A stretch of 64,000 nucleotides of DNA from Candidatus Heimdallarchaeum aukensis (lineage in GTDB: Archaea; Asgardarchaeota; Heimdallarchaeia; Heimdallarchaeales; Heimdallarchaeaceae). Under the pieces are notes generated by a model. That model worked only from the letters and a program-made list of their open reading frames with translations, was not told where the DNA came from and searched no databases. The stretch spans positions 2,272,001 to 2,336,000 of the forward strand of contig CP084166.1 of NCBI GenBank assembly GCA_021513695.1, given 5' to 3'. Within the stretch, counting starts at the first letter, position 1. Each line of letters begins with the position of its first letter. Positions 3 to 59,292 of the stretch are shown here, one piece after another. The translations under genes were made by a program, and so were the position numbers.

Positions 3-983
3 ACTCACAAGGATAAAATATATGGTTTCTTCCTTGGAAATGAGGACGGTATTATCTTTAAGCATAGAATTTTCAACAAGGAACTCTGTCCTGAATCAGT
101 GTTGGAAAATGTTGTAAGTTCTGTTTGTTCTTTTTTAAGAGAAACAGATCTCTCTGACCGGGGATCAATTACCTTGTCAAATTCTCTTATTTCATTTATT
201 AGAATTAAAGATGTTACTTATGTAATAAGTCATGGGATAGCAGAAATAAAAGAAGTCTATGAGATTCTGAATGAAATTGCAGACATATTTGAAGATCGGT
301 CTAAACGCCGTTTTCATAGTGGCAGTGAGAATCAGTTATTTTCTGGAGCTTCAGCTTCTTTTTCAGAAGTAGTGGAGGAAGTATTTAGAGAGATAATAAT
401 AGCTCAACAGAGGAAAGTTATGTACGAAGAAACAGTAGAAACAGATGCTGAAGAAATAATTCTTTCTGATCTAGAAATTGTTGACTTTCCTGTTTCTGTT
501 TCAGGAGAATCAAAAACTGAGCAAATTTCAAAAGAAAAAGAAGAAAAAGCAGCTACTGAAGGAAAAGAAGAAAAAGTAAAACCTGTTAGTAAGGAAGATC
601 ACTTGAGATCTATTTCATATAATATATTAAATTCTCTATCTGGAATCAAGCATCTAGTTTTTATCGAACATGCTGATAACAAAGCTAAAATGTTTTTTGA
701 ATATGGTGAGATTGAAGAAAAAATAGTTCAGCAAACGGTATCTATATGTGAAAAATTCCTAAAAGAAATTATAGAACTTATGGCTGATAAAGAAGAAAAA
801 AGTGCGATAGAAGTAAGTAAGAACTATCAGATTATCTTTGTTCCATTAAATGAAACTAATTTTATGTATGCTATCGCCACAAAAAGTATTGACCCTGTAA
901 TTATGGAACCTGTTTTTGAAAGAATTGCAAGACGGATAGTCCAGCTTGTTCTTGACTATAAAAAAGAAAAAAATGAAAGTTAA
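3..983 (+). CDS. hypothetical protein, 5'-partial at window edge; apparent tandem Roadblock/longin-like modules joined by an acidic K/E linker (fold call by eye)
   Basis: Frame is open from nt 3 (THKDKIYGFFLGNEDGIIFKHRIF...) through the listed GTG at 99, so the gene probably starts upstream of the window. Stop at 981-983. Purine-rich coding strand, as in most genes here. Confidence 0.6.
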   Translation, partial: THKDKIYGFFLGNEDGIIFKHRIFNKELCPESVLENVVSSVCSFLRETDLSDRGSITLSNSLISFIRIKDVTYVISHGIAEIKEVYEILNEIADIFEDRSKRRFHSGSENQLFSGASASFSEVVEEVFREIIIAQQRKVMYEETVETDAEEIILSDLEIVDFPVSVSGESKTEQISKEKEEKAATEGKEEKVKPVSKEDHLRSISYNILNSLSGIKHLVFIEHADNKAKMFFEYGEIEEKIVQQTVSICEKFLKEIIELMADKEEKSAIEVSKNYQIIFVPLNETNFMYAIATKSIDPVIMEPVFERIARRIVQLVLDYKKEKNES

Positions 984-7876: not shown

Positions 7877-8947
7877 TTAAAACGATAAGGAAAAAAAGTC
7901 ATTGTTATTAAGTTTCGAATGAAACAAATAGCTTTTCCATTCAAGTTTACACGAACAAGAAGGTAAGTCCTGAAGAATATTGGGATCTTGAGAAAGAGTG
8001 AAATCTTTTAGGGCTTGAACAATTGTAGAGTCACAAGAACCACAGTTATGAGCTCCTCTCTTTTTACCTCCTGCAACAGGGTCACAAATGATTCTTAAGT
8101 TGGGATAGAGAGTAGAAAGTTCTCGGCAGATATGTACAAGTGACCATAAGTAGGGGGGACGATAAAGATTCTTATCAAAAAGTGAAGAGAGATAAGTGTC
8201 GCGTTGTATATTTATTGCATTAATTGATACGGTGTCTACCCCTAAAGAAACAACCTGTCTAACACTGTTAAAAACGTCCAACATGGAGTCAAATTCTGAA
8301 ACAAAAGGTGGTTTGAAAAGAAGGTAAGCTTTAATTTTTGCCCCAAAGGAAAAAACACGTTTTGTAGCACGTTCGAAATCTTCCCAAAAGAAACCTTTGT
8401 TTATAGAATCACGAAGAATAGCATTATTCGCACTTTCTAATCCTATAGCAATCTCAACTTTAGAAATATCAAAGTGATCACGGAGAAGTGTTAGTTTTTT
8501 TTCTGTAACATATGAAGGTCGAGACTCTAGTACTAACTCTTTAATACTTGACGAATAAGGTTGAAGTTCATGAAGGATAGAAATTAGAACATGGTTTGGG
8601 ACTTCGAGAGAATCAAGAATGCTACCACTAGTAAATAGTTTTATAGAATAAGAAAGGGACGGATCAATTAAAGAGGATAATTTAGAAGAAAAATCAGAGA
8701 GCATCTCTGAAAAATCTGGTTTTTGAGGGTTATCATAAAGATAACCGCAAATTGAACAACCTCCACTACGAGAAAGAGCCCAAGAACAACCTCTTGTAGG
8801 AAGAATAAAAACAATAGCTTTTGCTGGGCCAGTACGAAGACGATGATCTTCAACCCATGCAACAAGACGACGTGAAGTAGAACGCTTGGAAAGGGCTGAT
8901 TGGCGGTAACTATGGATTATGGAACTAAAAGAAGGGTTTATTTTCAT
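7877..8947 (-). CDS. raSEA: archaeosine biosynthesis radical SAM protein RaSEA (TIGR01210-like)
   Basis: Cys cluster region TRGCSWALSRSGGCSICGY and C-terminal CGSC/CSC cysteines. Its ATG overlaps the ArcS stop (ATGA at 8944-8947). ArcS-RaSEA pairing is known in archaea. Confidence 0.7.
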   Translation of the reverse strand: MKINPSFSSIIHSYRQSALSKRSTSRRLVAWVEDHRLRTGPAKAIVFILPTRGCSWALSRSGGCSICGYLYDNPQKPDFSEMLSDFSSKLSSLIDPSLSYSIKLFTSGSILDSLEVPNHVLISILHELQPYSSSIKELVLESRPSYVTEKKLTLLRDHFDISKVEIAIGLESANNAILRDSINKGFFWEDFERATKRVFSFGAKIKAYLLFKPPFVSEFDSMLDVFNSVRQVVSLGVDTVSINAINIQRDTYLSSLFDKNLYRPPYLWSLVHICRELSTLYPNLRIICDPVAGGKKRGAHNCGSCDSTIVQALKDFTLSQDPNILQDLPSCSCKLEWKSYLFHSKLNNNDFFSLSF

Positions 8948-10872
8948 TTTGTTTCACCTTTTTTGAGTTTGAGTTTTTTCTTTACTATAGCTAAAGAACC
9001 AGATGACATTTTATTCATGTCAACACCAGCAATAAGTGCACGAGCAGTGGCCAAAACACAACCTGAATTAACAATAAATATTTCATCAGATGGAAGAATA
9101 AATTCAGAAGCGTGATTACAACCAGGGGCGTAGATAGAACTACCTGTGATGGTCTCTGCAGCAAAATCTAAGTTGACGAGAGAGTAATCGAGAATCTCTT
9201 GAGCTGCTGCTGGCTGGAGAGAAAGAAAACCTGTACGGGAAAGATATGTGGCTATAAGTTTTTTTTCTCTGAATATCTGGATGTCTCTAGGATATTTACC
9301 ACGAGTGCGAATTGGAGAAGAAAAGAGAATATTACCTGAGCCAGGACCGTATTGGTAATCTGCCGTAGCAATGAGTTTGCGGAGAAAAGGAGATAGATTG
9401 TGAGATGAATTGGAGTCAGTAAGGTCCAAAGAAGAAAAAACTTCGCGTAGGGTTGAAGAAAGATTAGAAAGAGATGAAGAACTAGTTGGACGATCAGATA
9501 TGGAAGTATGATATACAGTCAAATTCAAAGAATTAGAAACACGTTCAACTATATCAGAGTAACCTTGACCATATGTGTGATTAATAAGAATAATGTTTTC
9601 TGGAAACTTAGAAAGAACATCAATGAGAAGAGACGAAGTGACAGCTATTTCTTCTTCTGACCAGAAACCTGAAACTGGTATATCATAAAAACGAGGAGGA
9701 TAAAGAGATTCGAGTTCACGAGGAACAACAGAAAGCGGAGAGGTAATTATTAACTCTGAAAGAAATGGTAAAAAGGATTTTCCTGCTTGACGGAGAGATT
9801 GAATAAAAAGTGAATGAGAGCGAGAAAGAGAATAAGGTTTTCTTGCAGAACAAGGAAAAAGAATTACAACTCGAGTTTGAGGAGATGGATTAAAGCGTTC
9901 TCGAACACGATGTCGGAAAAGTTCAACTTCAGGACGATTAAGCGATGAAGAGCTAGTACAAACTAAAGAAGTAGACTGTTGAGCTGGAAAGCGAGAAAGG
10001 AAGGTAGAGGAATAGTTACGGTCGAAGTAATTGAGAGTCGAAGAAAGAAGGGGTGAAGAATGAACATCGCGTTCTACTAAAGTACGAAGGTTATCAGACT
10101 CCAAAAAGAAACGGATTTGAGAAAGTTTGTTAGCCATGACTTGAAGATTGTGTCCTAGGATGTCGGGAGGAGAAGAGCGGCAGAAAGAACAATAACATTC
10201 TGGATGATTAGAAAGAGGATAAACAGAATCAGAAGTGAGGAAAAAACCTCGTTCTGAGAGATAGTAAGCAAGAGAATCGTCGAAAAAGTCTATACCTGAA
10301 TAGACAAGAAAAGAATAATAGGCGGGGGCAATTGGACCAGGAACATATAGAGCTATATCTGGAGAAAGTCGAGAGCGTAGAGAAACAAATAATTCAGAAA
10401 GTTTACGCTGATTGTTAAAGAGAGAAGAAAGACCAGTAAGAACAAAAAAAGAACAGTCAGTAGATAAAACATCTTCTAATAGAGGAGAATCGAAGAAAGT
10501 ATAAGGTAAAGTAAAAATTTGAGAATGAAGGTCTGGGAGAGATAGAAAAGAGGTAACATATTCAGAAAAAGATGATTCTGACAGAGTAGATGAAACAAAC
10601 GAAGGGTAAAATGGTTGAGATGAAAGTGTAAAAGAAGAAGAAAGAACTCGCTCGGAAAGGTGAGGTGGAAAAGACCATCGTAACTGGAAAGAAGAATCTA
10701 AGTCAGAAAAACGGGGAGGAAAAGAAGAATCAAAAAAACCTGAAAAGCCAAAATTAGAAGGTTTGTTACCAGAATTGAAAGAGAGAAGACCTGGTGCGAG
10801 GATATGAGAAGTACGAGTCTCAGCTAAAAGGCGAGAAAAACCAAAGGCAGAGAGAGGTTGAAAGAAACGCAA
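8944..10872 (-). CDS. arcS: archaeosine synthase ArcS (TGT-like N-domain, DUF5591 core, C-terminal PUA)
   Basis: DUF5591-type block ILFPCSARKPYSLSRSH and PUA-like C-terminus (SSIYAPGCNHASEFILPSDEIFIVNSGCVLATARALIAG). Uninterrupted 642-codon ORF with TTG start. Very Ser/Phe/Leu-rich and divergent. Confidence 0.7.
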   Translation of the reverse strand: MRFFQPLSAFGFSRLLAETRTSHILAPGLLSFNSGNKPSNFGFSGFFDSSFPPRFSDLDSSFQLRWSFPPHLSERVLSSSFTLSSQPFYPSFVSSTLSESSFSEYVTSFLSLPDLHSQIFTLPYTFFDSPLLEDVLSTDCSFFVLTGLSSLFNNQRKLSELFVSLRSRLSPDIALYVPGPIAPAYYSFLVYSGIDFFDDSLAYYLSERGFFLTSDSVYPLSNHPECYCSFCRSSPPDILGHNLQVMANKLSQIRFFLESDNLRTLVERDVHSSPLLSSTLNYFDRNYSSTFLSRFPAQQSTSLVCTSSSSLNRPEVELFRHRVRERFNPSPQTRVVILFPCSARKPYSLSRSHSLFIQSLRQAGKSFLPFLSELIITSPLSVVPRELESLYPPRFYDIPVSGFWSEEEIAVTSSLLIDVLSKFPENIILINHTYGQGYSDIVERVSNSLNLTVYHTSISDRPTSSSSLSNLSSTLREVFSSLDLTDSNSSHNLSPFLRKLIATADYQYGPGSGNILFSSPIRTRGKYPRDIQIFREKKLIATYLSRTGFLSLQPAAAQEILDYSLVNLDFAAETITGSSIYAPGCNHASEFILPSDEIFIVNSGCVLATARALIAGVDMNKMSSGSLAIVKKKLKLKKGETK

Positions 10873-26908: not shown

Positions 26909-27305
26909 TTTTTTAAACTCCTATAATTCTCCTTTACGTGTCCTAATTTCTGCTCTGTGTTTGATATTAAAAAAATTTCTATCGGTGTCTTGAACTTTTG
27001 TCTGAAGGAGTATTTATCAAGTAAAATTTAGTGTTGTTGTTTCTCCGTTAAACAACTTGATTTCTGCGTAGTTTTTTGTATGTTGATCCTGCACTCAGAT
27101 AAGCTAATTCAAGAGAGTGCAACTAGCATCTATTAACCTGAGGAGAAGGTTAAGTTTTCTTATATTAATTGGAGCAAAATGAAACAAACTCTTGCTCATA
27201 AAGAGCTGTTAGTATTTATGCTTCTATGTTTTAGAAAGACTAAAAAGTGATAATGTTTTGAATTACTCAAAGCGGTTTAATAATTGTCGAATGGCGGTTG
27301 TAACA

Positions 27306-28523
27306 ATGAATAAAACTATACAAGAAACGCTTAAATGGTTTGAAAATGAAATTTCTTCTGAACTTGCTAAACCTAGAAAAACTGCTTCTAAGCACCTTGA
27401 TGTTATAAAAGATAGGGTAAATGATATTAAAGATACTTCAGAAAGATTTGATTATAGTGATGTTAACGATCCTGATGTTTATCAAAACTATGCTACATCA
27501 ATTTATAAGAAAACTTTAGAAAAAATGAATGAAATTGAATTTCCAGAAGTAATTACATATAAGAATATTGACGATTTTTATAATCGGACTTTAAATATCC
27601 TTAATTCATATATTGAAATTCTAGCGAAGTACTTAACTTGGCTTAAACGTGATCGTTCTTATAAAACTAGAGTTAAAAATTTAGATAGGGCAATTACTAG
27701 ATTACAGCAAGAATTGTATAAACTTAACACAAAAACACTTGATGAATACTTAGAATATGAAAAATATGAGAGCGTGATTGATGATTTAAACTATCTGCAG
27801 GAATTAATTAATAGAAAAAAAGAAATTGAAAATGAAATTGAATCTCACAAAGATGATATTGAGCGATTAGATAAAATCATTGCAGAAAAATCTCGTGAAA
27901 AAGAAGAATTAGAGGGTCACCCGGGTTTTGCACAGCTAAAAGAAAATAAGGCGAAACTTTCACAGATTGAACTTACTATCTCTTCCAAAGTTAATGAAAT
28001 TAAGAAATTATGCTCAAAAATACTTAAAGCTGCTGATACAAGAAAAGTTGAACTTGACGATTATACACGAGAGCTGATTAAATCTATTATCAAAAATCCG
28101 CTAGAAGAGCTTGTTAAGGAAACTGATGGATATCCTGGCATCAAAAGTATGTTAAAAGAAGTTAGAAAGATTAGTGAATCACCAAATATTCAAATGAAAA
28201 AGGAGAAACTAGAAAAAGCTTTTAACAATATGGAGGAAATTCTAAACGATAGTTTACTTGACCTACAAAAAGAAGCTAAATTTTTACTAAAACAAACACA
28301 AGCTATTGAAGAGAAATTCGCTGAATTAGAAATTGATCGGAAAATATCCAAATTAAAACGTGAAATTGAAGACCTAAAAATAGATAAAGATAGAATAACA
28401 TTAGCTCAACGACGCGAATTAGCTGAAATAGAAAAAGAAGTAAACAATCTTTATGAAGATTTAATGAAACGTATAGAAGAATATACTGGAAAACACGTAA
28501 ATATTCTCTTAGAAGCCACTTGA
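27306..28523 (+). CDS. long coiled-coil protein (about 405 aa)
   Basis: Likely ATG at 27306 (MNKTIQ...); the track's 27258 start is a non-ATG extension. Nearly all helical K/E/L/I sequence. First gene of the Roadblock-GTPase string. Confidence 0.6.
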   Translation: MNKTIQETLKWFENEISSELAKPRKTASKHLDVIKDRVNDIKDTSERFDYSDVNDPDVYQNYATSIYKKTLEKMNEIEFPEVITYKNIDDFYNRTLNILNSYIEILAKYLTWLKRDRSYKTRVKNLDRAITRLQQELYKLNTKTLDEYLEYEKYESVIDDLNYLQELINRKKEIENEIESHKDDIERLDKIIAEKSREKEELEGHPGFAQLKENKAKLSQIELTISSKVNEIKKLCSKILKAADTRKVELDDYTRELIKSIIKNPLEELVKETDGYPGIKSMLKEVRKISESPNIQMKKEKLEKAFNNMEEILNDSLLDLQKEAKFLLKQTQAIEEKFAELEIDRKISKLKREIEDLKIDKDRITLAQRRELAEIEKEVNNLYEDLMKRIEEYTGKHVNILLEAT

Positions 28524-28694
28524 TTAATAGCTTTTTTTTTTATTTTTTATAAAGAAATGATATTGCAATTATCAACACAATTTTTAAATGATATGACTAA
28601 ATGATATAAGATAGTAAACATAGAACAACATTTAATATGTTTAACATCATTTAGCATATTAAGGATATGTAAATATATTTGAGGAGAATCAACT

Positions 28695-28994
28695 ATGATT
28701 TCACAAAAACAATTTGAAGAAACTCTGAAAAAGTTAGAAAGCCATCCCAGTGTAAGGGGCGTTATAATAACAAGTAATGATGGCTTACCTATCTCTAGTA
28801 CAAAAAATCTTTCAATAGAAATGCGAGAAAATGTTTCAGCATTAGTAGCTTCATTGGTTGGAAGAGCTAAAGCTGTGGTTAGCGAACTAGAAGAAGGAGA
28901 CTTGAATTTCTTTACTTTAGACACAACAAAGGGTGAGATTCTTGTCGCTCCAGAACAGGATTATGTGTTAATCGTTTTACGTAATAAGCAATAA
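28695..28994 (+). CDS. Roadblock/LC7 (MglB-like) protein
   Basis: 99 aa. [22 protein letters not shown]...[10 protein letters not shown]...[16 protein letters not shown] fits the Roadblock/LC7 pattern. gaggag RBS upstream. Confidence 0.8.
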
Positions 28995-29065
28995 TAGAGT
29001 CATCATTAGTAGAAATTATATATAAAAGAAATAGGTTTCATTAAACAACGGAAGAGAGAGTTAGA

Positions 29066-29632
29066 ATGAGAAAAGATGCCTCAGGAAAGCAACACTTTAA
29101 GATAGTGTTTGTTGGACCTAGTTTAGCTGGAAAAACAACTTTACTTAGAAGACTCCATTCTGATGTCACAGGAATAAAAAAAGGTGGATTAAACAGTATA
29201 GAAGATCCTTCAGGAAGAACAATTTACTTTGATTTCTCACCTTTTATGGCGACATCAAATGTCATTTTGGATATTTACACAGTGGCTGGTCAAAAAAGGC
29301 ATAGACACCAAAGGGCGTTAGTTTTGAAGGGTGTTGACGGTCTCTTGTTTGTTGCAGATTCTTCAAGAGCGATGTTGGCCGATAATGTCGAATCAGCAGA
29401 AGAATTGAAAAAAGAACTTGGAGACAAATTAAACAATGAGATTCCACTAGTTATAGTTCTAAATAAACGTGATTTGCCAGATGCAATGGATAAACGAGAG
29501 TTAATCGATGCTTTAAATCTTGGAACAAATTTACCAGTTTACGAAACAATCGCCACAGAAGGTATAGGTGTTAAACGCGCTTTTCAGTCCCTAGCTAGAG
29601 AAGTTTTATTAAAACAAGTTTATAACATGTAG
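29066..29632 (+). CDS. MglA-family small GTPase
   Basis: G1 GPSLAGKTT, G3 TVAGQ (Thr in place of Ras Asp, as in MglA), G4 NKRD. 188 aa. Confidence 0.75.
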   Translation: MRKDASGKQHFKIVFVGPSLAGKTTLLRRLHSDVTGIKKGGLNSIEDPSGRTIYFDFSPFMATSNVILDIYTVAGQKRHRHQRALVLKGVDGLLFVADSSRAMLADNVESAEELKKELGDKLNNEIPLVIVLNKRDLPDAMDKRELIDALNLGTNLPVYETIATEGIGVKRAFQSLAREVLLKQVYNM

Positions 29633-42977: not shown

Positions 42978-44132
42978 ATGGTCGTTATGAGTGGATATAG
43001 CCCTACTTGGACTTCAAAAGGCTCTGACAAATTAAGGATCCTTCAAGTCACAAAGATACTAATGAATATAATAGATAGATTGATCAATTCGATTGACGTA
43101 ACTGATGAAAAAACAAGAAATATGGTTGAAGGAATAATAGCGAACACAATTTATAATTATTTTACACCAAACAAAGATTTAGCGATCGAAAAACAGTATG
43201 AATATCTACTAGAATTCTTAGGTTGGAAATTAATTTCTATCGAAAAAAAAGATGATGATTCACTCTCATTAAGTTTAGGTGCAAATCGTTTTATTGATGA
43301 AGAAACAGATAATTTAGCATATAACGCAATTGTTTTAGGCATTGCAAAATCTATTGGATATTTCATTTTCAATAAAGATGTTAAAGTAGAATTGATGGTA
43401 AGTCAGTTTGATTCGACTCAAATAACTGCTCTAATTGAGCGAACTGATAAAGAAATAGCTGTTGAAACTCAAGAAAAGTTAGGTATTCAAATCTCAAAAG
43501 AAGAAGGAGAATTAGGAATCGAACAGAAACAAGCTCCAGCTACCAAAAAAACTCCTGCAATTGAAGTTAAGCCTGAATTAGAATTAGATGTTAAATCTAT
43601 ATTTTCTCCTATTCTTCAGAATTATCCACCCACATCAATTTTGCCTGTATTTCATAAAGTTTTATCTGAAATTGTTACAAGCTTCTTTTCAGAGATTGAA
43701 GACAGTCAAGTAATTAATGCAAAGGCATCGTATTCCGAAATAAACACCGTTTTCTTAATAGAATTTATACTTAGAACCTTACCAACTATTGGAAAAGATG
43801 TGAGTGAGATTGCTACTCTCGCAGGGCAATATCTAATTAAAGCTATACTTACAAAAACACCTGATGATATCATAAAATATTTACCAAAAGAACTTCTTTC
43901 TGAAATCTCTAGACGTGTATCTTATGTTGAATTTGGTGCGCGAGATTATTGTTCTTATGCTCCAGGAGAACGATGTGTTGAAGGGAAAAGAGATTTATGC
44001 GACTTTGTTCTATTTCTTTGGCAAGGAATGTTAGATTCTCTCATTCCTGAAAAAAAATTCAAACTTGGAGAACGCATTCCGGCAACAAGAAGAGGAAAAT
44101 TCTGTTTGGTGGAATTTATAAAACAACAGTAG
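42978..44132 (+). CDS. hypothetical protein with C-terminal V4R-like (TRAPP/Bet3-related) domain
   Basis: C-terminus YCSYAPGERCVEGKRDLCDFVLFLWQGMLDSL...RRGKFCLVEF follows the V4R pattern (C...C-x-F..G...G...G..C..E). The N-terminal half may hold a second degenerate copy. Confidence 0.5.
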   Translation: MVVMSGYSPTWTSKGSDKLRILQVTKILMNIIDRLINSIDVTDEKTRNMVEGIIANTIYNYFTPNKDLAIEKQYEYLLEFLGWKLISIEKKDDDSLSLSLGANRFIDEETDNLAYNAIVLGIAKSIGYFIFNKDVKVELMVSQFDSTQITALIERTDKEIAVETQEKLGIQISKEEGELGIEQKQAPATKKTPAIEVKPELELDVKSIFSPILQNYPPTSILPVFHKVLSEIVTSFFSEIEDSQVINAKASYSEINTVFLIEFILRTLPTIGKDVSEIATLAGQYLIKAILTKTPDDIIKYLPKELLSEISRRVSYVEFGARDYCSYAPGERCVEGKRDLCDFVLFLWQGMLDSLIPEKKFKLGERIPATRRGKFCLVEFIKQQ

Positions 44133-44142
44133 GTGTGAAAAA

Positions 44143-44604
44143 ATGGGTAGAAAAACAATAAAAAAAACATATAAGGATACATATGCAAGAGGACAAGTTG
44201 ATAAAAGTGAATTTCAAGGTAGATATTTTGTTAAAATAGAGCTTGTATCTCTGAAGGTACTGGAAGATAAAGATTTACTTGGAAATGAAAGTGAATTTTA
44301 TTTTAAAGTGGGAAGAATGTTACACAAGCATCGAATTCCTCAGAAAGGTACTATTAATTTAGAGAAAAATGAGGTTTTTCAGCCAACAGATGGGTTGACT
44401 TTATATACACAATTTATTCATAAACCTGAAAGGGGAACAATTGTGGTTCCTTTTCGTCTACGCGAAAGAGATCCATTGAAGGTGGATGACCACATTATTA
44501 AAACTAAGTTATCTATTCCTCTAGGATCTTCTGATTATATAGTTCTGGTAGAAAAATCTGTAAAAGTAAAACTAAAAATTTCAGCTTTGGAAACTCGATA
44601 CTAA
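44143..44604 (+). CDS. hypothetical protein (153 aa), probably all-beta
   Basis: Starts 10 nt after the previous stop, preceded by aggtg. Alternating hydrophobic pattern. No family recognised. Confidence 0.45.
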   Translation: MGRKTIKKTYKDTYARGQVDKSEFQGRYFVKIELVSLKVLEDKDLLGNESEFYFKVGRMLHKHRIPQKGTINLEKNEVFQPTDGLTLYTQFIHKPERGTIVVPFRLRERDPLKVDDHIIKTKLSIPLGSSDYIVLVEKSVKVKLKISALETRY

Positions 44605-44616
44605 AATAACAAATTC

Positions 44617-45828
44617 TTACCATTTATTTTTTTTAAAAATAAATTTCAACCCTGTTTTCATGAAGAAAGGCCAAAGTTCTAATTTTGTTAATAACTTCCA
44701 AACTATGGCCTGTTGATTATCTACATCTCCTTTAGATGTAAATATTTGTTTATACTTTGGTTTATTGAATATTTTTAGTAGATTATCGATGTCTTTGTCA
44801 TCTAAAGAATCTAAATATTGTCTAACAAGCTTCATTATGAAAAGATTTCTAGCAAATTCCTTTTTCCACCTTTTTTCATACTGCTTTAGGAATGATTTTT
44901 TATAATTTTCTTCGATTATTGCTTTTGCAGCTATCTCTCCCGCAATTCTGGCTGCTATACCCCCTAAAATTACACCGCCCCCTGTCGTAGGTTTCGTCTG
45001 TCCTGCTGCATCTCCAACAACTAAGATATTATCAGTATAGCTTCTGTTAATATAAGATCCTAATGGTATCGCTCCACTCATTTCTCTCAAAATTTTTGCA
45101 GAATAAAATCTCTCCTTCAATAGTTCGCTATTTATAAAATTTCTCAAATATTTTTTTGCTGGTCGATATCTAGTTCCTATTCCTACCTTTGCCACACTAT
45201 TGTCTATTGGAATAATCCACCCAAAGAAACCTGGGGCATATTTTGATATCTGATATAACTCCACATATCTTTTATCTAAATTTTCTATACCATCAATTAT
45301 AAATTGCGAAGCAAAGATTATCTCATCAGGATTAGATAATCCGACTTGAGAATTAAGTTTAGGAAATCTTCCTTCTGCTAGAATCGAAACTTTAGTTGTT
45401 ATTCTACTCTCTTTAGCTTGTTTTCCTAACACTAATTCAATATTTTCTGATTTTCTGTGTATATTTTTAACCCTTGAATTTGTTCTTATTTCTATTCCAT
45501 TATCATGTGCAATTGATGCCAAATATCTGTTAAACTTACTTCTATCTACTACAAGTGCATGATTTGAATTTTTTTCAACTACTAACTCTGTTCCATTAGC
45601 AGAAAATATTTTGGCTCCTATTATTTCCTTGTTTTGAATAATTTCTGATGGTAATTTGTTGAGACCTATTTTTTCTAACCCTTCTATACTTAGTAATCCT
45701 GCACAGTGTTCAGTAATTCCTATTTCTTTTTTGGATTCAAGTACTAGAACATCTACATCATATTTACTCGCTTCAATTGCAGATAGTAGTCCAGCTGGTC
45801 CTCCACCAATAACAACGATTTTTTTCAT
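44617..45828 (-). CDS. geranylgeranyl reductase family flavoprotein
   Basis: N-terminal VVIGGGPAGLLSA dinucleotide fold, VVGDAAGQTKPTTGGG. Length typical of archaeal lipid GGR. Confidence 0.8.
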   Translation of the reverse strand: MKKIVVIGGGPAGLLSAIEASKYDVDVLVLESKKEIGITEHCAGLLSIEGLEKIGLNKLPSEIIQNKEIIGAKIFSANGTELVVEKNSNHALVVDRSKFNRYLASIAHDNGIEIRTNSRVKNIHRKSENIELVLGKQAKESRITTKVSILAEGRFPKLNSQVGLSNPDEIIFASQFIIDGIENLDKRYVELYQISKYAPGFFGWIIPIDNSVAKVGIGTRYRPAKKYLRNFINSELLKERFYSAKILREMSGAIPLGSYINRSYTDNILVVGDAAGQTKPTTGGGVILGGIAARIAGEIAAKAIIEENYKKSFLKQYEKRWKKEFARNLFIMKLVRQYLDSLDDKDIDNLLKIFNKPKYKQIFTSKGDVDNQQAIVWKLLTKLELWPFFMKTGLKFIFKKNKW

Positions 45829-45881: not shown

Positions 45882-46805
45882 TTAAAAAGCTAGTTCTAAC
45901 TCATCTACAGCTTTTATTTCATTTTGTTTAATGATGTGCTTTTCCCATGTTTCTGTGTCGATAGCCAACTTTAGAACTTCCTCGAATTCTATTCTTTTGT
46001 TATAGTCTTGAAATATCTCAATAGCTTTGTTTTCATTTTCTTTAATCCACTCGTTAGAAAAATTAGATAGAAATTCAGTAAATATCTGGTAAGCTTTTAT
46101 TTTTTCTTTATTTGTTGTTAAAACGATTGTAAACGCTTTTTCTATTTTTCTAATGAGGACTATGATGTGCTCTGATTCTATTTCAGTTAAATCTCCTAGA
46201 CCATATTGCTGACTCATGTTCAGTATTGCAGAAATAAAAGCGACTAATAAAACAGCATCATAAGGTAAAGATTGGGTAATTAGCAGATACAAAGGTTGTC
46301 CATCTTCATTTGCAATCAATATGTCTAAATCCTTTAGAACCAAGCCAAACGATGTAAATATTTTTTCGTTACCAACTTTTATTTTTTCAATATTTGTTCT
46401 TTTGTTTACAACTAAATTTAGTGATCTCGCAAAATTACTCACTTGCTTTCTCTCATATTCTATAGTCTTTTTATCTTCCATTATGTCATTTATAGAACTA
46501 CTTTTGACCCATGCAAATTGTTGACGAAAGATTTTTACTACTTTTTTGACTACTGTTGAATAATAATCCTTTTTCTTGACGATAACTAAAAAATAATCAT
46601 TTACTGCTTCATAAATAACTTCATTTTCTCCAAAAATGACTTTTTTTGGTATTTTTTCTCCTAATTCTGTAGTAAGTGTTGTCACAGCACTTATGAAACT
46701 TATAAGGGACGCTTTGATTTCCCTGTTAGACCAGGTTCCATGATAGATTCTGTAAAACCTACATGAACCGTTTCTTTTTAGTATCAAAATGGCCTTGATT
46801 AACAC
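45882..46805 (-). CDS. hypothetical protein with two Roadblock/longin-like modules (fold call by eye)
   Basis: MLIKAILILKRNGSCRFYRIY...YFLVIVKKKD and DILIANEDGQPLYLLITQ...AFTIVLTTNKEK resemble the strand-helix-strand pattern of longin/Roadblock domains. Confidence 0.45.
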   Translation of the reverse strand: MLIKAILILKRNGSCRFYRIYHGTWSNREIKASLISFISAVTTLTTELGEKIPKKVIFGENEVIYEAVNDYFLVIVKKKDYYSTVVKKVVKIFRQQFAWVKSSSINDIMEDKKTIEYERKQVSNFARSLNLVVNKRTNIEKIKVGNEKIFTSFGLVLKDLDILIANEDGQPLYLLITQSLPYDAVLLVAFISAILNMSQQYGLGDLTEIESEHIIVLIRKIEKAFTIVLTTNKEKIKAYQIFTEFLSNFSNEWIKENENKAIEIFQDYNKRIEFEEVLKLAIDTETWEKHIIKQNEIKAVDELELAF

Positions 46806-57847: not shown

Positions 57848-58441
57848 CTATCTAATGTATATCTCTCTAAATTTCAAAACCTTTTCTTCACTTTGGATAG
57901 CTAATCTTGCAGCATGAGAAAAAAGTTTTTCAACATTTTCAGATGATAATGCAGATGTTTCTATATAATCAAAATTATTTTCTTTTGCATATTCTTCTGC
58001 TTTTTCTCTGTCTACAGCTCTTGCATTTTTTAGATCACTCTTATTTCCACATAAAATAATTGGAATTTCTGAACATTTTTTCTTTATTTCACTAACCCAA
58101 AAGGATACATCATCAAATGTTGACGTTTTAGTAATATCATAGACTACGATAGCAACTTTAGCTCCTAGAAAATATTTTTGTCTAACAAATCCAAAAATTT
58201 CTTGAGCTCCTGTATCCCATAAACTAATTCTAACATTAACATCATCGGTGAGTATATTTTTAGACAAATTTTCATTTAATTCGTCCTTTGTTAAGGAAAG
58301 ACTTTTCGTTAACCAACTCACACCCATTGTTGGGATATAAGAATATGAGAAAGTGTTCATAGCATATCTTCTTGCCAATGATGTTTTTCCTACAAAAGCT
58401 GAACCAATTGTTATAATTTTATACAAATGTCGTTCTATCAT
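57848..58441 (-). CDS. Rab/Ras-like small GTPase with variant G3 motif
   Basis: G1 GSAFVGKTS, switch I YIPTMGVSW, G3 WDTGAQE (canonical DTAGQE), G4 GNKSD, G5 ETSAL. No C-terminal Cys. ATG at 58441 preferred, 2 nt after the upstream gene's stop. Confidence 0.8.
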   Translation of the reverse strand: MIERHLYKIITIGSAFVGKTSLARRYAMNTFSYSYIPTMGVSWLTKSLSLTKDELNENLSKNILTDDVNVRISLWDTGAQEIFGFVRQKYFLGAKVAIVVYDITKTSTFDDVSFWVSEIKKKCSEIPIILCGNKSDLKNARAVDREKAEEYAKENNFDYIETSALSSENVEKLFSHAARLAIQSEEKVLKFREIYIR

Positions 58442-58443
58442 TT

Positions 58444-59292
58444 TTATCTCCAAAATATTTCTATTAGTTTTCTTTCTATGTTGATACTGCTTAAACGCCT
58501 CCAATCATCGAGAATCAAAGGCTTTGTATTCGTATTGATTAATTCTCTAAACTGTTCTGGTTCAAAATACTTACTAGTGATATCAACAAATTCTGAAATG
58601 AAATTAAGGAATGTCTCCTTTATTTGGCTATAATCTTCAATTTCTGTTATTTCTGTTGAGTTTACTTCATCTCTTATAAAGAACCCTTCTTTGTCAAAGA
58701 AAAATAACTCGTCAATTTTTTTGTAATCATTTATTAATTTATTAACATCATTTCTTAGTAACTGATTAATTTTTTTCCTTTTCGATTGATCTTCCACAAC
58801 TTTTTGTATTCCTGAACATACTGAATTTATTATATTCTCAAATATTTCTAATAAATTTCTGAACTCAATATCTTTGATGTGATTAGATATAATAGCGTTC
58901 ACTTTGAAAACTTCGGAAATCACCATAGATGGCGATAAGGGTTTTTTTACTTGTTTAATTTCATCAAGGAAATTTTTAGCAGTTTCTTTATCATAGATGT
59001 CAAAAGAGTATAGAAAGAGATTCATTAAAAAGAATAATTGAGAATACGCCATTCCTTCTTTTTGCTCTTGGGAGATTAGTACAAATATGAAATCATACTT
59101 CTTTTCAACTAAAACAATTGTTTTCTTAAAAATTATTTCTCTTAATGGTCCTAATTCTCTTTGTTCTCCCATCTTTATGAATTTTAATAGTTCCGCAAAT
59201 TGGTCAGGTTTAAGAATTAAATTTTCACTATTAGGCGTGTCTGTAAAGATAGTATCGTAGTTATTTTTGTTGAGTATGTAAAAATTAACCAA
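58444..59292 (-). CDS. hypothetical protein, N-terminal longin/Roadblock-like module; candidate GTPase partner
   Basis: 282 aa. MVNFYILNKNN...KTIVLVEKKYDFIFVLISQEQ...SQLFFLMNLFLYSF. Tightly coupled to the downstream GTPase. Confidence 0.5.
   Translation of the reverse strand: MVNFYILNKNNYDTIFTDTPNSENLILKPDQFAELLKFIKMGEQRELGPLREIIFKKTIVLVEKKYDFIFVLISQEQKEGMAYSQLFFLMNLFLYSFDIYDKETAKNFLDEIKQVKKPLSPSMVISEVFKVNAIISNHIKDIEFRNLLEIFENIINSVCSGIQKVVEDQSKRKKINQLLRNDVNKLINDYKKIDELFFFDKEGFFIRDEVNSTEITEIEDYSQIKETFLNFISEFVDITSKYFEPEQFRELINTNTKPLILDDWRRLSSINIERKLIEIFWR

Follow-up and report, generated by a model that had tools for sequence, protein, structure and literature searches.

What does the open reading frame (ORF) at the left edge of a 64,000-nucleotide stretch of the Candidatus Heimdallarchaeum aukensis genome (contig CP084166.1, positions 2,272,001 to 2,336,000, hereafter the window) encode, and with which partners might its product work? 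A preliminary description of the stretch had seen in it an edge-truncated protein with tandem Roadblock/longin modules. When the complete protein is modelled together with its homologues, it is predicted to be a chain of about 340 residues in which a canonical longin domain is followed by a disordered acidic linker of about 50 residues and a Roadblock-type domain. The assignment of both modules to the longin/Roadblock fold can be considered secure at the level of the structural model, and a role as a platform for a small GTPase is the favoured, though by no means certain, reading of that fold.

Extent and domain layout of the protein

The coding sequence lies at positions 3..983 on the forward strand, with 326 codons and the stop codon (981..983) inside the window and the first 14 codons beyond its left edge. 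Frame 3 (+) is free of stops from nucleotide 3 to 980, and the listed ORF of 294 residues is a fragment, its entry beginning at GTG-99 only because the window edge cuts the frame. The truncation is borne out by this open frame and by a full-length homologue of 340 residues, and it is minor, since only 14 of the 340 residues are missing. This homologue, P0001, is the best match; it is encoded on a near-identical contig (L004), shares 99% identity with the window protein and adds 14 N-terminal residues to it (MCKISVKDVQSKVN). On that contig a GTG start is located 14 codons before window position 3 and an in-frame TGA another 12 nucleotides upstream, that is, 54 nucleotides upstream of window position 3. 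The candidates for the start are the GTG at -42 or an alternative GTG used in the sister genome L001.

Could the real gene be the shorter ORF starting at GTG-99, or the ORF a non-functional remnant? Inside the window, GTG-99 comes first among the canonical starts, and the upstream TGA is real. However, the interval from that stop to the window edge holds both a GTG start and coding sequence that is conserved, so the stop does not make GTG-99 the start, an outcome that the preliminary description had named as fatal to its proposal. A start at GTG-99 would moreover remove residues 1-46, including strands β1 and β2 of the domain core, and the codons of nucleotides 3-99 are among the best conserved of the family (IYGFFLGN-x-DG-IIYK), with G26, G30, K34, F38 and C43 conserved at ≥90% among the 21 sequences that cover it, the rest of the 28 in the alignment starting further downstream. 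Between the window protein and its 89%-identical orthologue in L001, 85 codon differences are synonymous and 37 non-synonymous, with ratios of 39:13 and 38:10 in the two modules and of 8:14 in the linker, which marks a real gene under strong purifying selection that is relaxed in the linker. An AT-rich promoter-like element upstream of the gene is also conserved in two strains. The reading of a shorter or decayed gene is therefore effectively refuted. The region has a G+C content of 31-33%, and the neighbouring genes encode a UPRTase, a PCMT, a flap endonuclease and an ArcS-like tRNA enzyme, a set in keeping with an archaeal source.

From a structural point of view, the layout of the protein was derived from an AlphaFold2 model computed on a 28-sequence alignment, with a mean predicted local distance difference test (pLDDT) of 71 and a predicted template modelling score (pTM) of 0.46; residue numbers are those of P0001, and positions in the window protein are obtained by subtracting 14. 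The N module (18..443, forward strand, placed by the secondary structure of the model) shows the order β-β-α-β-β-β-α over residues 20-118 (β1 20-27, β2 32-37, α1 45-62, β3 67-71, β4 76-82, β5 85-91, α2 96-118), with a short, poorly conserved helix (6-14) ahead of the core, helices at 123-161 after it and an invariant F-H-S...F-S-G-A-S stretch at residues 118-131. It is the order of these elements that suggests a canonical longin rather than a hybrid with an extra N-terminal helix. The linker (429..581, forward strand, residues 157-207) has a pLDDT below 50, consists to 45% of D, E and K, reaches a column identity of 0.49 and is rich in indels in the family alignment, varying in both length and sequence. 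Together with the 8:14 codon ratio, these features uphold the acidic K/E linker of the preliminary description. The C module (591..977, forward strand, residues 211-339) is arranged as α-β-β-α-β-β-β-α (helix 211-225, strands 229-238 and 241-249, helix 253-275, strands 282-284, 289-295 and 300-307, and a long C-terminal helix 312-339), which is the topology of Roadblock/LC7 domains, a-b-b-a-b-b-b(-a), including the conserved N-terminal helix; in the 28-sequence alignment this helix carries invariant residues.

The features that define the longin/Roadblock superfamily, namely a five-stranded antiparallel sheet, the core order b-b-a-b-b-b, flanking helices and significant similarity to solved members, are all found in the model. 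In the fold search the highest scores were obtained with δ-COP (12.5), AP-3 μ/σ (11.8), AP-2 σ (11.4), the LAMTOR pair MP1/p14 (11.1-11.2) and Sec22b (10.6), followed by Asgard Roadblock structures (9.3-10.6), Mon1, Ccz1 and Inturned (about 10) and MglB (9.4-9.7); every match aligns about 100-117 residues, which corresponds to one module. The model and the fold search thus support two superfamily modules split by a disordered acidic linker, and the two segments on which the preliminary description had relied prove to be strand-rich cores, β3-β5 in the N module and β1-β2 plus β4-β5 in the C module. The two modules differ in subtype, a longin being followed by a Roadblock-type domain, and no mutual sequence similarity is detectable (hhalign E 0.48), a value that also led to the rejection of an internal duplication of one module.

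An orphan family and its known relatives

At the sequence level, the family stands apart from all models. Among 5.8 billion proteins, matches were obtained to 27 clusters (E 1e-197 to 2e-67), whose full-length members have about 305-345 residues besides a few shorter fragments, and an exhaustive hidden Markov model search of 1.84 billion representatives returned 11 matches, all of them belonging to the family (four being the full-length clusters) and none beyond it. Pfam, NCBIfam, phmmer and profile hmmsearch against PDB sequences gave nothing meaningful for the protein, and neither did Pfam for any of the 28 members; Robl_LC7 (PF03259) matches neither the window protein nor any of the 28 at E≤1. 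Weak recurrent matches to Utp11 in 11 members (best E 2.6e-4) stay below threshold and are presumed to be an artefact of the charged linker. A scan of 185,579 species-representative genomes located 25 loci, one per genome, the closest in Ca. H. endolithica (88% identity); the carriers are nearly all labelled Heimdallarchaeota, with one “Thorarchaeota” and several unclassified, and the homologues differ by 45-97% (median 56%). The family is a conserved single-copy one of Heimdallarchaeaceae-type Asgard archaea, seemingly confined to one family-level clade. A non-exhaustive literature search gave no earlier description of the family, of longin-Roadblock chains in archaea that lack a G domain, of tri-longin proteins in archaea, or of longins in Heimdallarchaeum. 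Both this class of fold and its frequent occurrence in Asgard archaea are established knowledge; new are the orphan family, its architecture and its linkage to a kinase, described below.

Several known systems share part of this architecture. Single-domain Asgard Roadblock/longin proteins (PDB 9jue, 9jq8, 7yh1, 7f8m; Tran et al. 2024, PMC10933270) have about 110-120 residues, are recognised by Robl_LC7 and form homodimers, whereas the window protein combines a longin and a Roadblock domain in a single chain that no sequence model recognises. The Asgard longin-GTPase-Roadblock fusions (Rag/Arf-like; PMC10933270) also carry the longin at the N-terminus and the Roadblock at the C-terminus, but the roughly 90 residues of helices and linker between the two modules of the window protein are too short for a G domain, and there is no P-loop. 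With FLCN, SMCR8, NPRL2 and the Asgard longins with a GP motif (PMC12290439) the window protein, a multi-domain protein from Heimdallarchaeia, shares an N-terminal longin, yet it is devoid of a DENN module. In these longins with GTPase-activating protein (GAP) activity, a Gly-Pro at the end of the β1-β2 loop or the start of β2 sets them apart from other longins (PMC12290439). The corresponding loop of the family reads G-N-x-[DE]-G followed by I, M, L, V or E, and never by Pro, in all members that include the stretch, so the N module was rejected as a GAP longin.

The closest resemblance in architecture is to the tri-longin subunits of Rab guanine nucleotide exchange factors (GEFs). In Mon1 and Ccz1, the first longin domain (LD1) is canonical (ββαβββαα), LD2 is of Roadblock type (αββαβββα) and LD3 of lamtor type (Klink et al. 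2022, PMC8833172). The best Foldseek match of the model in the PDB is a Mon1 chain (8jbe_C, E 7e-5), and the only alignments that run collinearly over both modules (about 350 columns) are to MON1 or HPS1 chains (E 7e-5 to 3.5e-3); their low TM-scores (template modelling scores, about 0.2) are expected, since the model leaves the geometry between the domains undefined. Like MON1/CCZ1, Fuzzy/Inturned and HPS1/HPS4, the window protein has multiple longin-superfamily domains in one chain, a longin first and then a Roadblock-type domain, with a long flexible linker. In contrast to them, it has two domains in 340 residues instead of three, no lamtor-type LD3 or αX helix can be assigned, the arrangement of the domains differs or is undefined, and the family is limited to one archaeal clade. 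The Pfam models Fuz_longin_1-3 and Intu_longin_1-3 yielded at best a match of one of the 28 members to Intu_longin_1 (E 0.16). As modelled, the protein therefore matches LD1 and LD2 of Mon1/Ccz1 in type and order, without LD3 and without detectable sequence homology.

Genomic neighbourhood and proposed function

Clustering of the ORFs around the 25 loci reveals a conserved block, GGR> <154 aa <385 aa [EF-1β>] <~700 aa | target> <radical-SAM <ArcS-like, in which GGR denotes a geranylgeranyl-reductase-like gene and the target is the longin-Roadblock gene. The ~700-aa gene is transcribed divergently from the target, 188-422 bp away, in 23 of the 25 genomes, and encodes a cytoplasmic, PhoR-like sensor kinase with GAF, PAS and HisKA domains (loci L005, L009 and L011-L034, e.g. 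L011:3712-5811, minus strand). With a median identity of 61%, this kinase is conserved to an unusual degree; its ATPase domain is apparently degenerate, with no HATPase_c match in Pfam and the Asn of the N-box, judged by eye, seemingly replaced. It is found neither in the window nor in the sister genomes L001 and L010. No small-GTPase family occurs among the conserved neighbours of the target, either within ±6 kb in the 25 loci or in the window, and no MglA/CvnD-type GTPase gene or CvnC (DUF742) gene adjoins it.

How, then, might the protein act? Characterised longin/Roadblock pairs include the MglB dimer, LAMTOR2/3, the C-terminal domains of the Rag proteins, TRAPPC1/C4 and the LD1s of Mon1-Ccz1. 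Essentially all characterised pairs serve as platforms for small GTPases (summarised in PMC10933270). By analogy with them, the window protein is rather likely to be a longin/Roadblock platform for a small Ras-superfamily GTPase, a function that is read from the predicted fold. The two modules would form a dimeric β-sheet platform, be it between themselves or together with a partner protein, on which the GTPase would dock and by which its nucleotide state or its localisation would be controlled. Because the Gly-Pro signature of the GAP longins is absent from the N module, this module is likelier to act as a scaffold or in a GEF-like manner than as a catalytic longin-GAP; the Roadblock module may have GAP activity of the arginine-independent, MglB-like kind. 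Since the divergent pairing with the GAF-PAS-HisKA kinase is conserved in most relatives, a link to a signal-sensing pathway is suggested, through which the platform would receive sensory input. This synteny suggests a functional link with the target and is no more than suggestive in view of the divergence of the homologues noted above.

The same pairing can be read differently, with the protein as an adaptor or output module of the kinase that involves no GTPase, its modules binding proteins or small ligands, as their fold is related to GAF/PAS-like sandwiches. This is a doubtful alternative: the divergent kinase gene and the lack of a conserved GTPase gene nearby are compatible with it, while the functions of the characterised pairs point to a GTPase and the kinase is missing from the Heimdallarchaeum loci. 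Even less probable is a structural longin of the adaptor, coat or SNARE kind (as the σ/μ adaptins, ζ/δ-COP or Sec22/Ykt6), binding membranes or cargo. Such proteins do lead the fold search, but neither the protein nor its conserved neighbourhood contains a SNARE motif, a transmembrane segment, a μ-homology domain or a solenoid large-subunit partner; Clat_adaptor_s of Pfam matches none of the 28 members, and the C module is of Roadblock type, which adaptins lack.

The actinobacterial conservon consists of the kinase CvnA, the Roadblock protein CvnB, CvnC (DUF742) and the GTPase CvnD. The platform with its kinase pairing recalls this system, whose GTPase and DUF742 components are missing at the target loci. 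Compared with the conservon and with the MglB, LAMTOR2-LAMTOR3 and Rag C-terminal platforms, the window protein is a heterotypic two-domain chain and not a homodimer, with no GTPase or CvnC gene next to it.

In Heimdallarchaeum (the window, L001 and L010) the conserved block is broken, and the target remains only loosely linked to the radical-SAM/ArcS pair. This pair, placed at 7877..10872 on the minus strand by synteny, BLAST and Pfam, encodes a RaSEA-like radical-SAM protein (356 aa) and an ArcS-like protein (TGT/DUF5591/PUA, 642 aa); it is the convergent downstream neighbour at 24-25 of 26 loci and anchors the synteny of the family more stably than any other gene, and in the window five or six genes are inserted between it and the target. 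The two genes overlap by 4 nucleotides, the ArcS-like domains are TGT, DUF5591, TGT_C2 and PUA, and the radical-SAM protein falls below the Pfam threshold in the window, its homologues being weakly recognised as Radical_SAM. The pair looks like the RaSEA-ArcS archaeosine pair and probably serves as a marker of synteny, not as a partner in function.

Another part of the ancestral neighbourhood is found displaced at 42978..45828, as seen from synteny clustering and from BLAST matches of 51-61% identity (E 1e-69 to 1e-166). It comprises a 384-aa orphan (42978..44132, forward strand), a 153-aa orphan (44143..44604, forward strand) and the GGR gene (44617..45828, minus strand), whose homologues lie 3-5 kb upstream of the target homologue in 17-21 of the 25 other genomes. 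The two orphans (42978..44604) have no Pfam, NCBIfam or PDB match and are neighbours of one another in about 20 Heimdall genomes, next to the kinase/target block. In the larger one, four cysteines near the C-terminus (C-x7-C-x7-C-x34-C) and the motif MSG-SPTWT-KGSDKLR near the N-terminus are invariant; a V4R/TRAPPC3-like domain, considered on account of the Cys-rich C-terminus, received no support from a PDB profile search or from Pfam searches of 19 members. Another protein of about 700 residues, all-helical and coiled-coil-like (L001:1-2483, L007:5774-7885; 38% identity between genomes), is encoded by the divergent neighbour of the target in L007 and L008, and in L001 by a gene that adjoins one more Roadblock/LC7 paralogue (129 residues), about 6 kb upstream of the target. 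Because L001 carries this paralogue upstream of the target, one further Roadblock gene probably lies just outside the window.

Other longin and Roadblock proteins of the window

The displaced GGR, 154-aa and 385-aa genes adjoin a second two-module gene in the window, at 45882..46805 (minus strand, 307 aa), and both orphans also sit beside its homologue in L035. The preliminary description had taken this gene as a recurrence of the same design. Two modules are indeed present in its AlphaFold2 model (pLDDT 71, pTM 0.68), but they consist of a longin (residues 3-128) and a longin or lamtor-like domain (160-256, ββαβββα) with a helical tail, and no homology between the two families is detectable (hhalign E 0.9). 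The best Foldseek matches of this di-longin protein are MON1A, Mon1, HPS1 and Fuzzy over about 290-370 columns, and a homologue with 42% identity (P0045) passes the Pfam model Fuz_longin_1 (27.6 versus a threshold of 26.1 bits). In most genomes the gene is unlinked to the target.

Taken together with this protein, the target might be one of two archaeal two-domain relatives or precursors of the tri-longin Rab-GEF subunits, the two pairing by their first longins into a Mon1-Ccz1-like exchange factor for one of the Rab-like GTPases of the same shuffled neighbourhood. This idea, which is drawn from architecture, is unlikely to be right. In this reading the target is the equivalent of LD1-LD2, without a third domain, and in the di-longin protein the first domain corresponds to the LD1 of Fuz/MON1/HPS1, whose model a homologue matches, and the second is longin- or lamtor-like. 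If true, this GEF architecture would predate eukaryogenesis.

Two further genes had been described as single-module proteins of the same fold. The one at 28695..28994 (forward strand, 99 aa) is a bona fide Roadblock/LC7 protein (Pfam 1.3e-19), with hhalign giving E 0.8 against the target. It belongs to three co-directional genes at 27258..29632 (forward strand), between one for a 421-aa coiled-coil-like protein without Pfam match and one for a 188-aa Arf-like GTPase (29066..29632; Pfam Arf 4.8e-18). The coiled-coil-like protein is not related to the ~700-aa coiled-coil protein of L007/L008 (BLASTP E 0.66). The pair of Roadblock and Arf-like GTPase genes recurs in L035, L036 and L037, in L035 divergent from the di-longin gene. 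A 125-aa antisense ORF (28547..28924, minus strand) that lies mostly inside the Roadblock gene is rich in Ser and Leu, has no gene support and is probably spurious.

For the other gene (58444..59292, minus strand, 282 aa), the presence of an N-terminal longin is weakly supported (Fuz_longin_1 E 0.033; hhalign to the second di-longin module E 0.003), and its family is genus-restricted. The protein is 100% identical to one encoded in the closed genome of Ca. H. aukensis (Heimdallarchaeaceae). Only 2 nucleotides separate its stop codon from the likely ATG (58441) of the next gene, which encodes a Ras/Rab-like GTPase (57848..58504; Pfam Ras 1.6e-45) and whose listed TTG start at 58504 would overlap the 282-aa ORF by 61 nucleotides. 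The stretch 57848..59292 (minus strand) looks like a translationally coupled longin-GTPase operon, and the pair adjoins CDC48 in the window as well as in L037, where the homologue is 29% identical (E 6e-35).

In total, four longin/Roadblock proteins with six modules and two small GTPases are encoded within 64 kb. In one Lokiarchaeon, 38 domains of the Roadblock type and 41 of the longin type were predicted (PMC10933270), and the density in the window exceeds the average implied by these counts. The statement of the preliminary description that the fold is unusually frequent thus holds in part: the fold is dense here, but its expansion in Asgard archaea is known (PMC10933270), and the same genes lie close together in L035-L037, where they occur in shuffled order (macro-synteny), interleaved with housekeeping genes.

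Longin and Roadblock domains form the core of most eukaryotic regulators of Rab, Rag and Arf GTPases, and the fact that they are expanded in Asgard archaea counts among the main arguments that the control of membrane trafficking arose in archaea. Most of the Asgard examples described are single domains or GTPase fusions, whereas the protein discussed here shows, at the level of its predicted fold, that multi-longin chains exist in Heimdallarchaeia while escaping all profile-based annotation. Because of this escape, censuses of eukaryotic signature proteins based on Pfam or InterPro would under-count such chains. With 340 residues and a closed genome, the protein is a small and tractable subject for asking which Asgard GTPases use platforms of this kind, and whether a kinase feeds into them.
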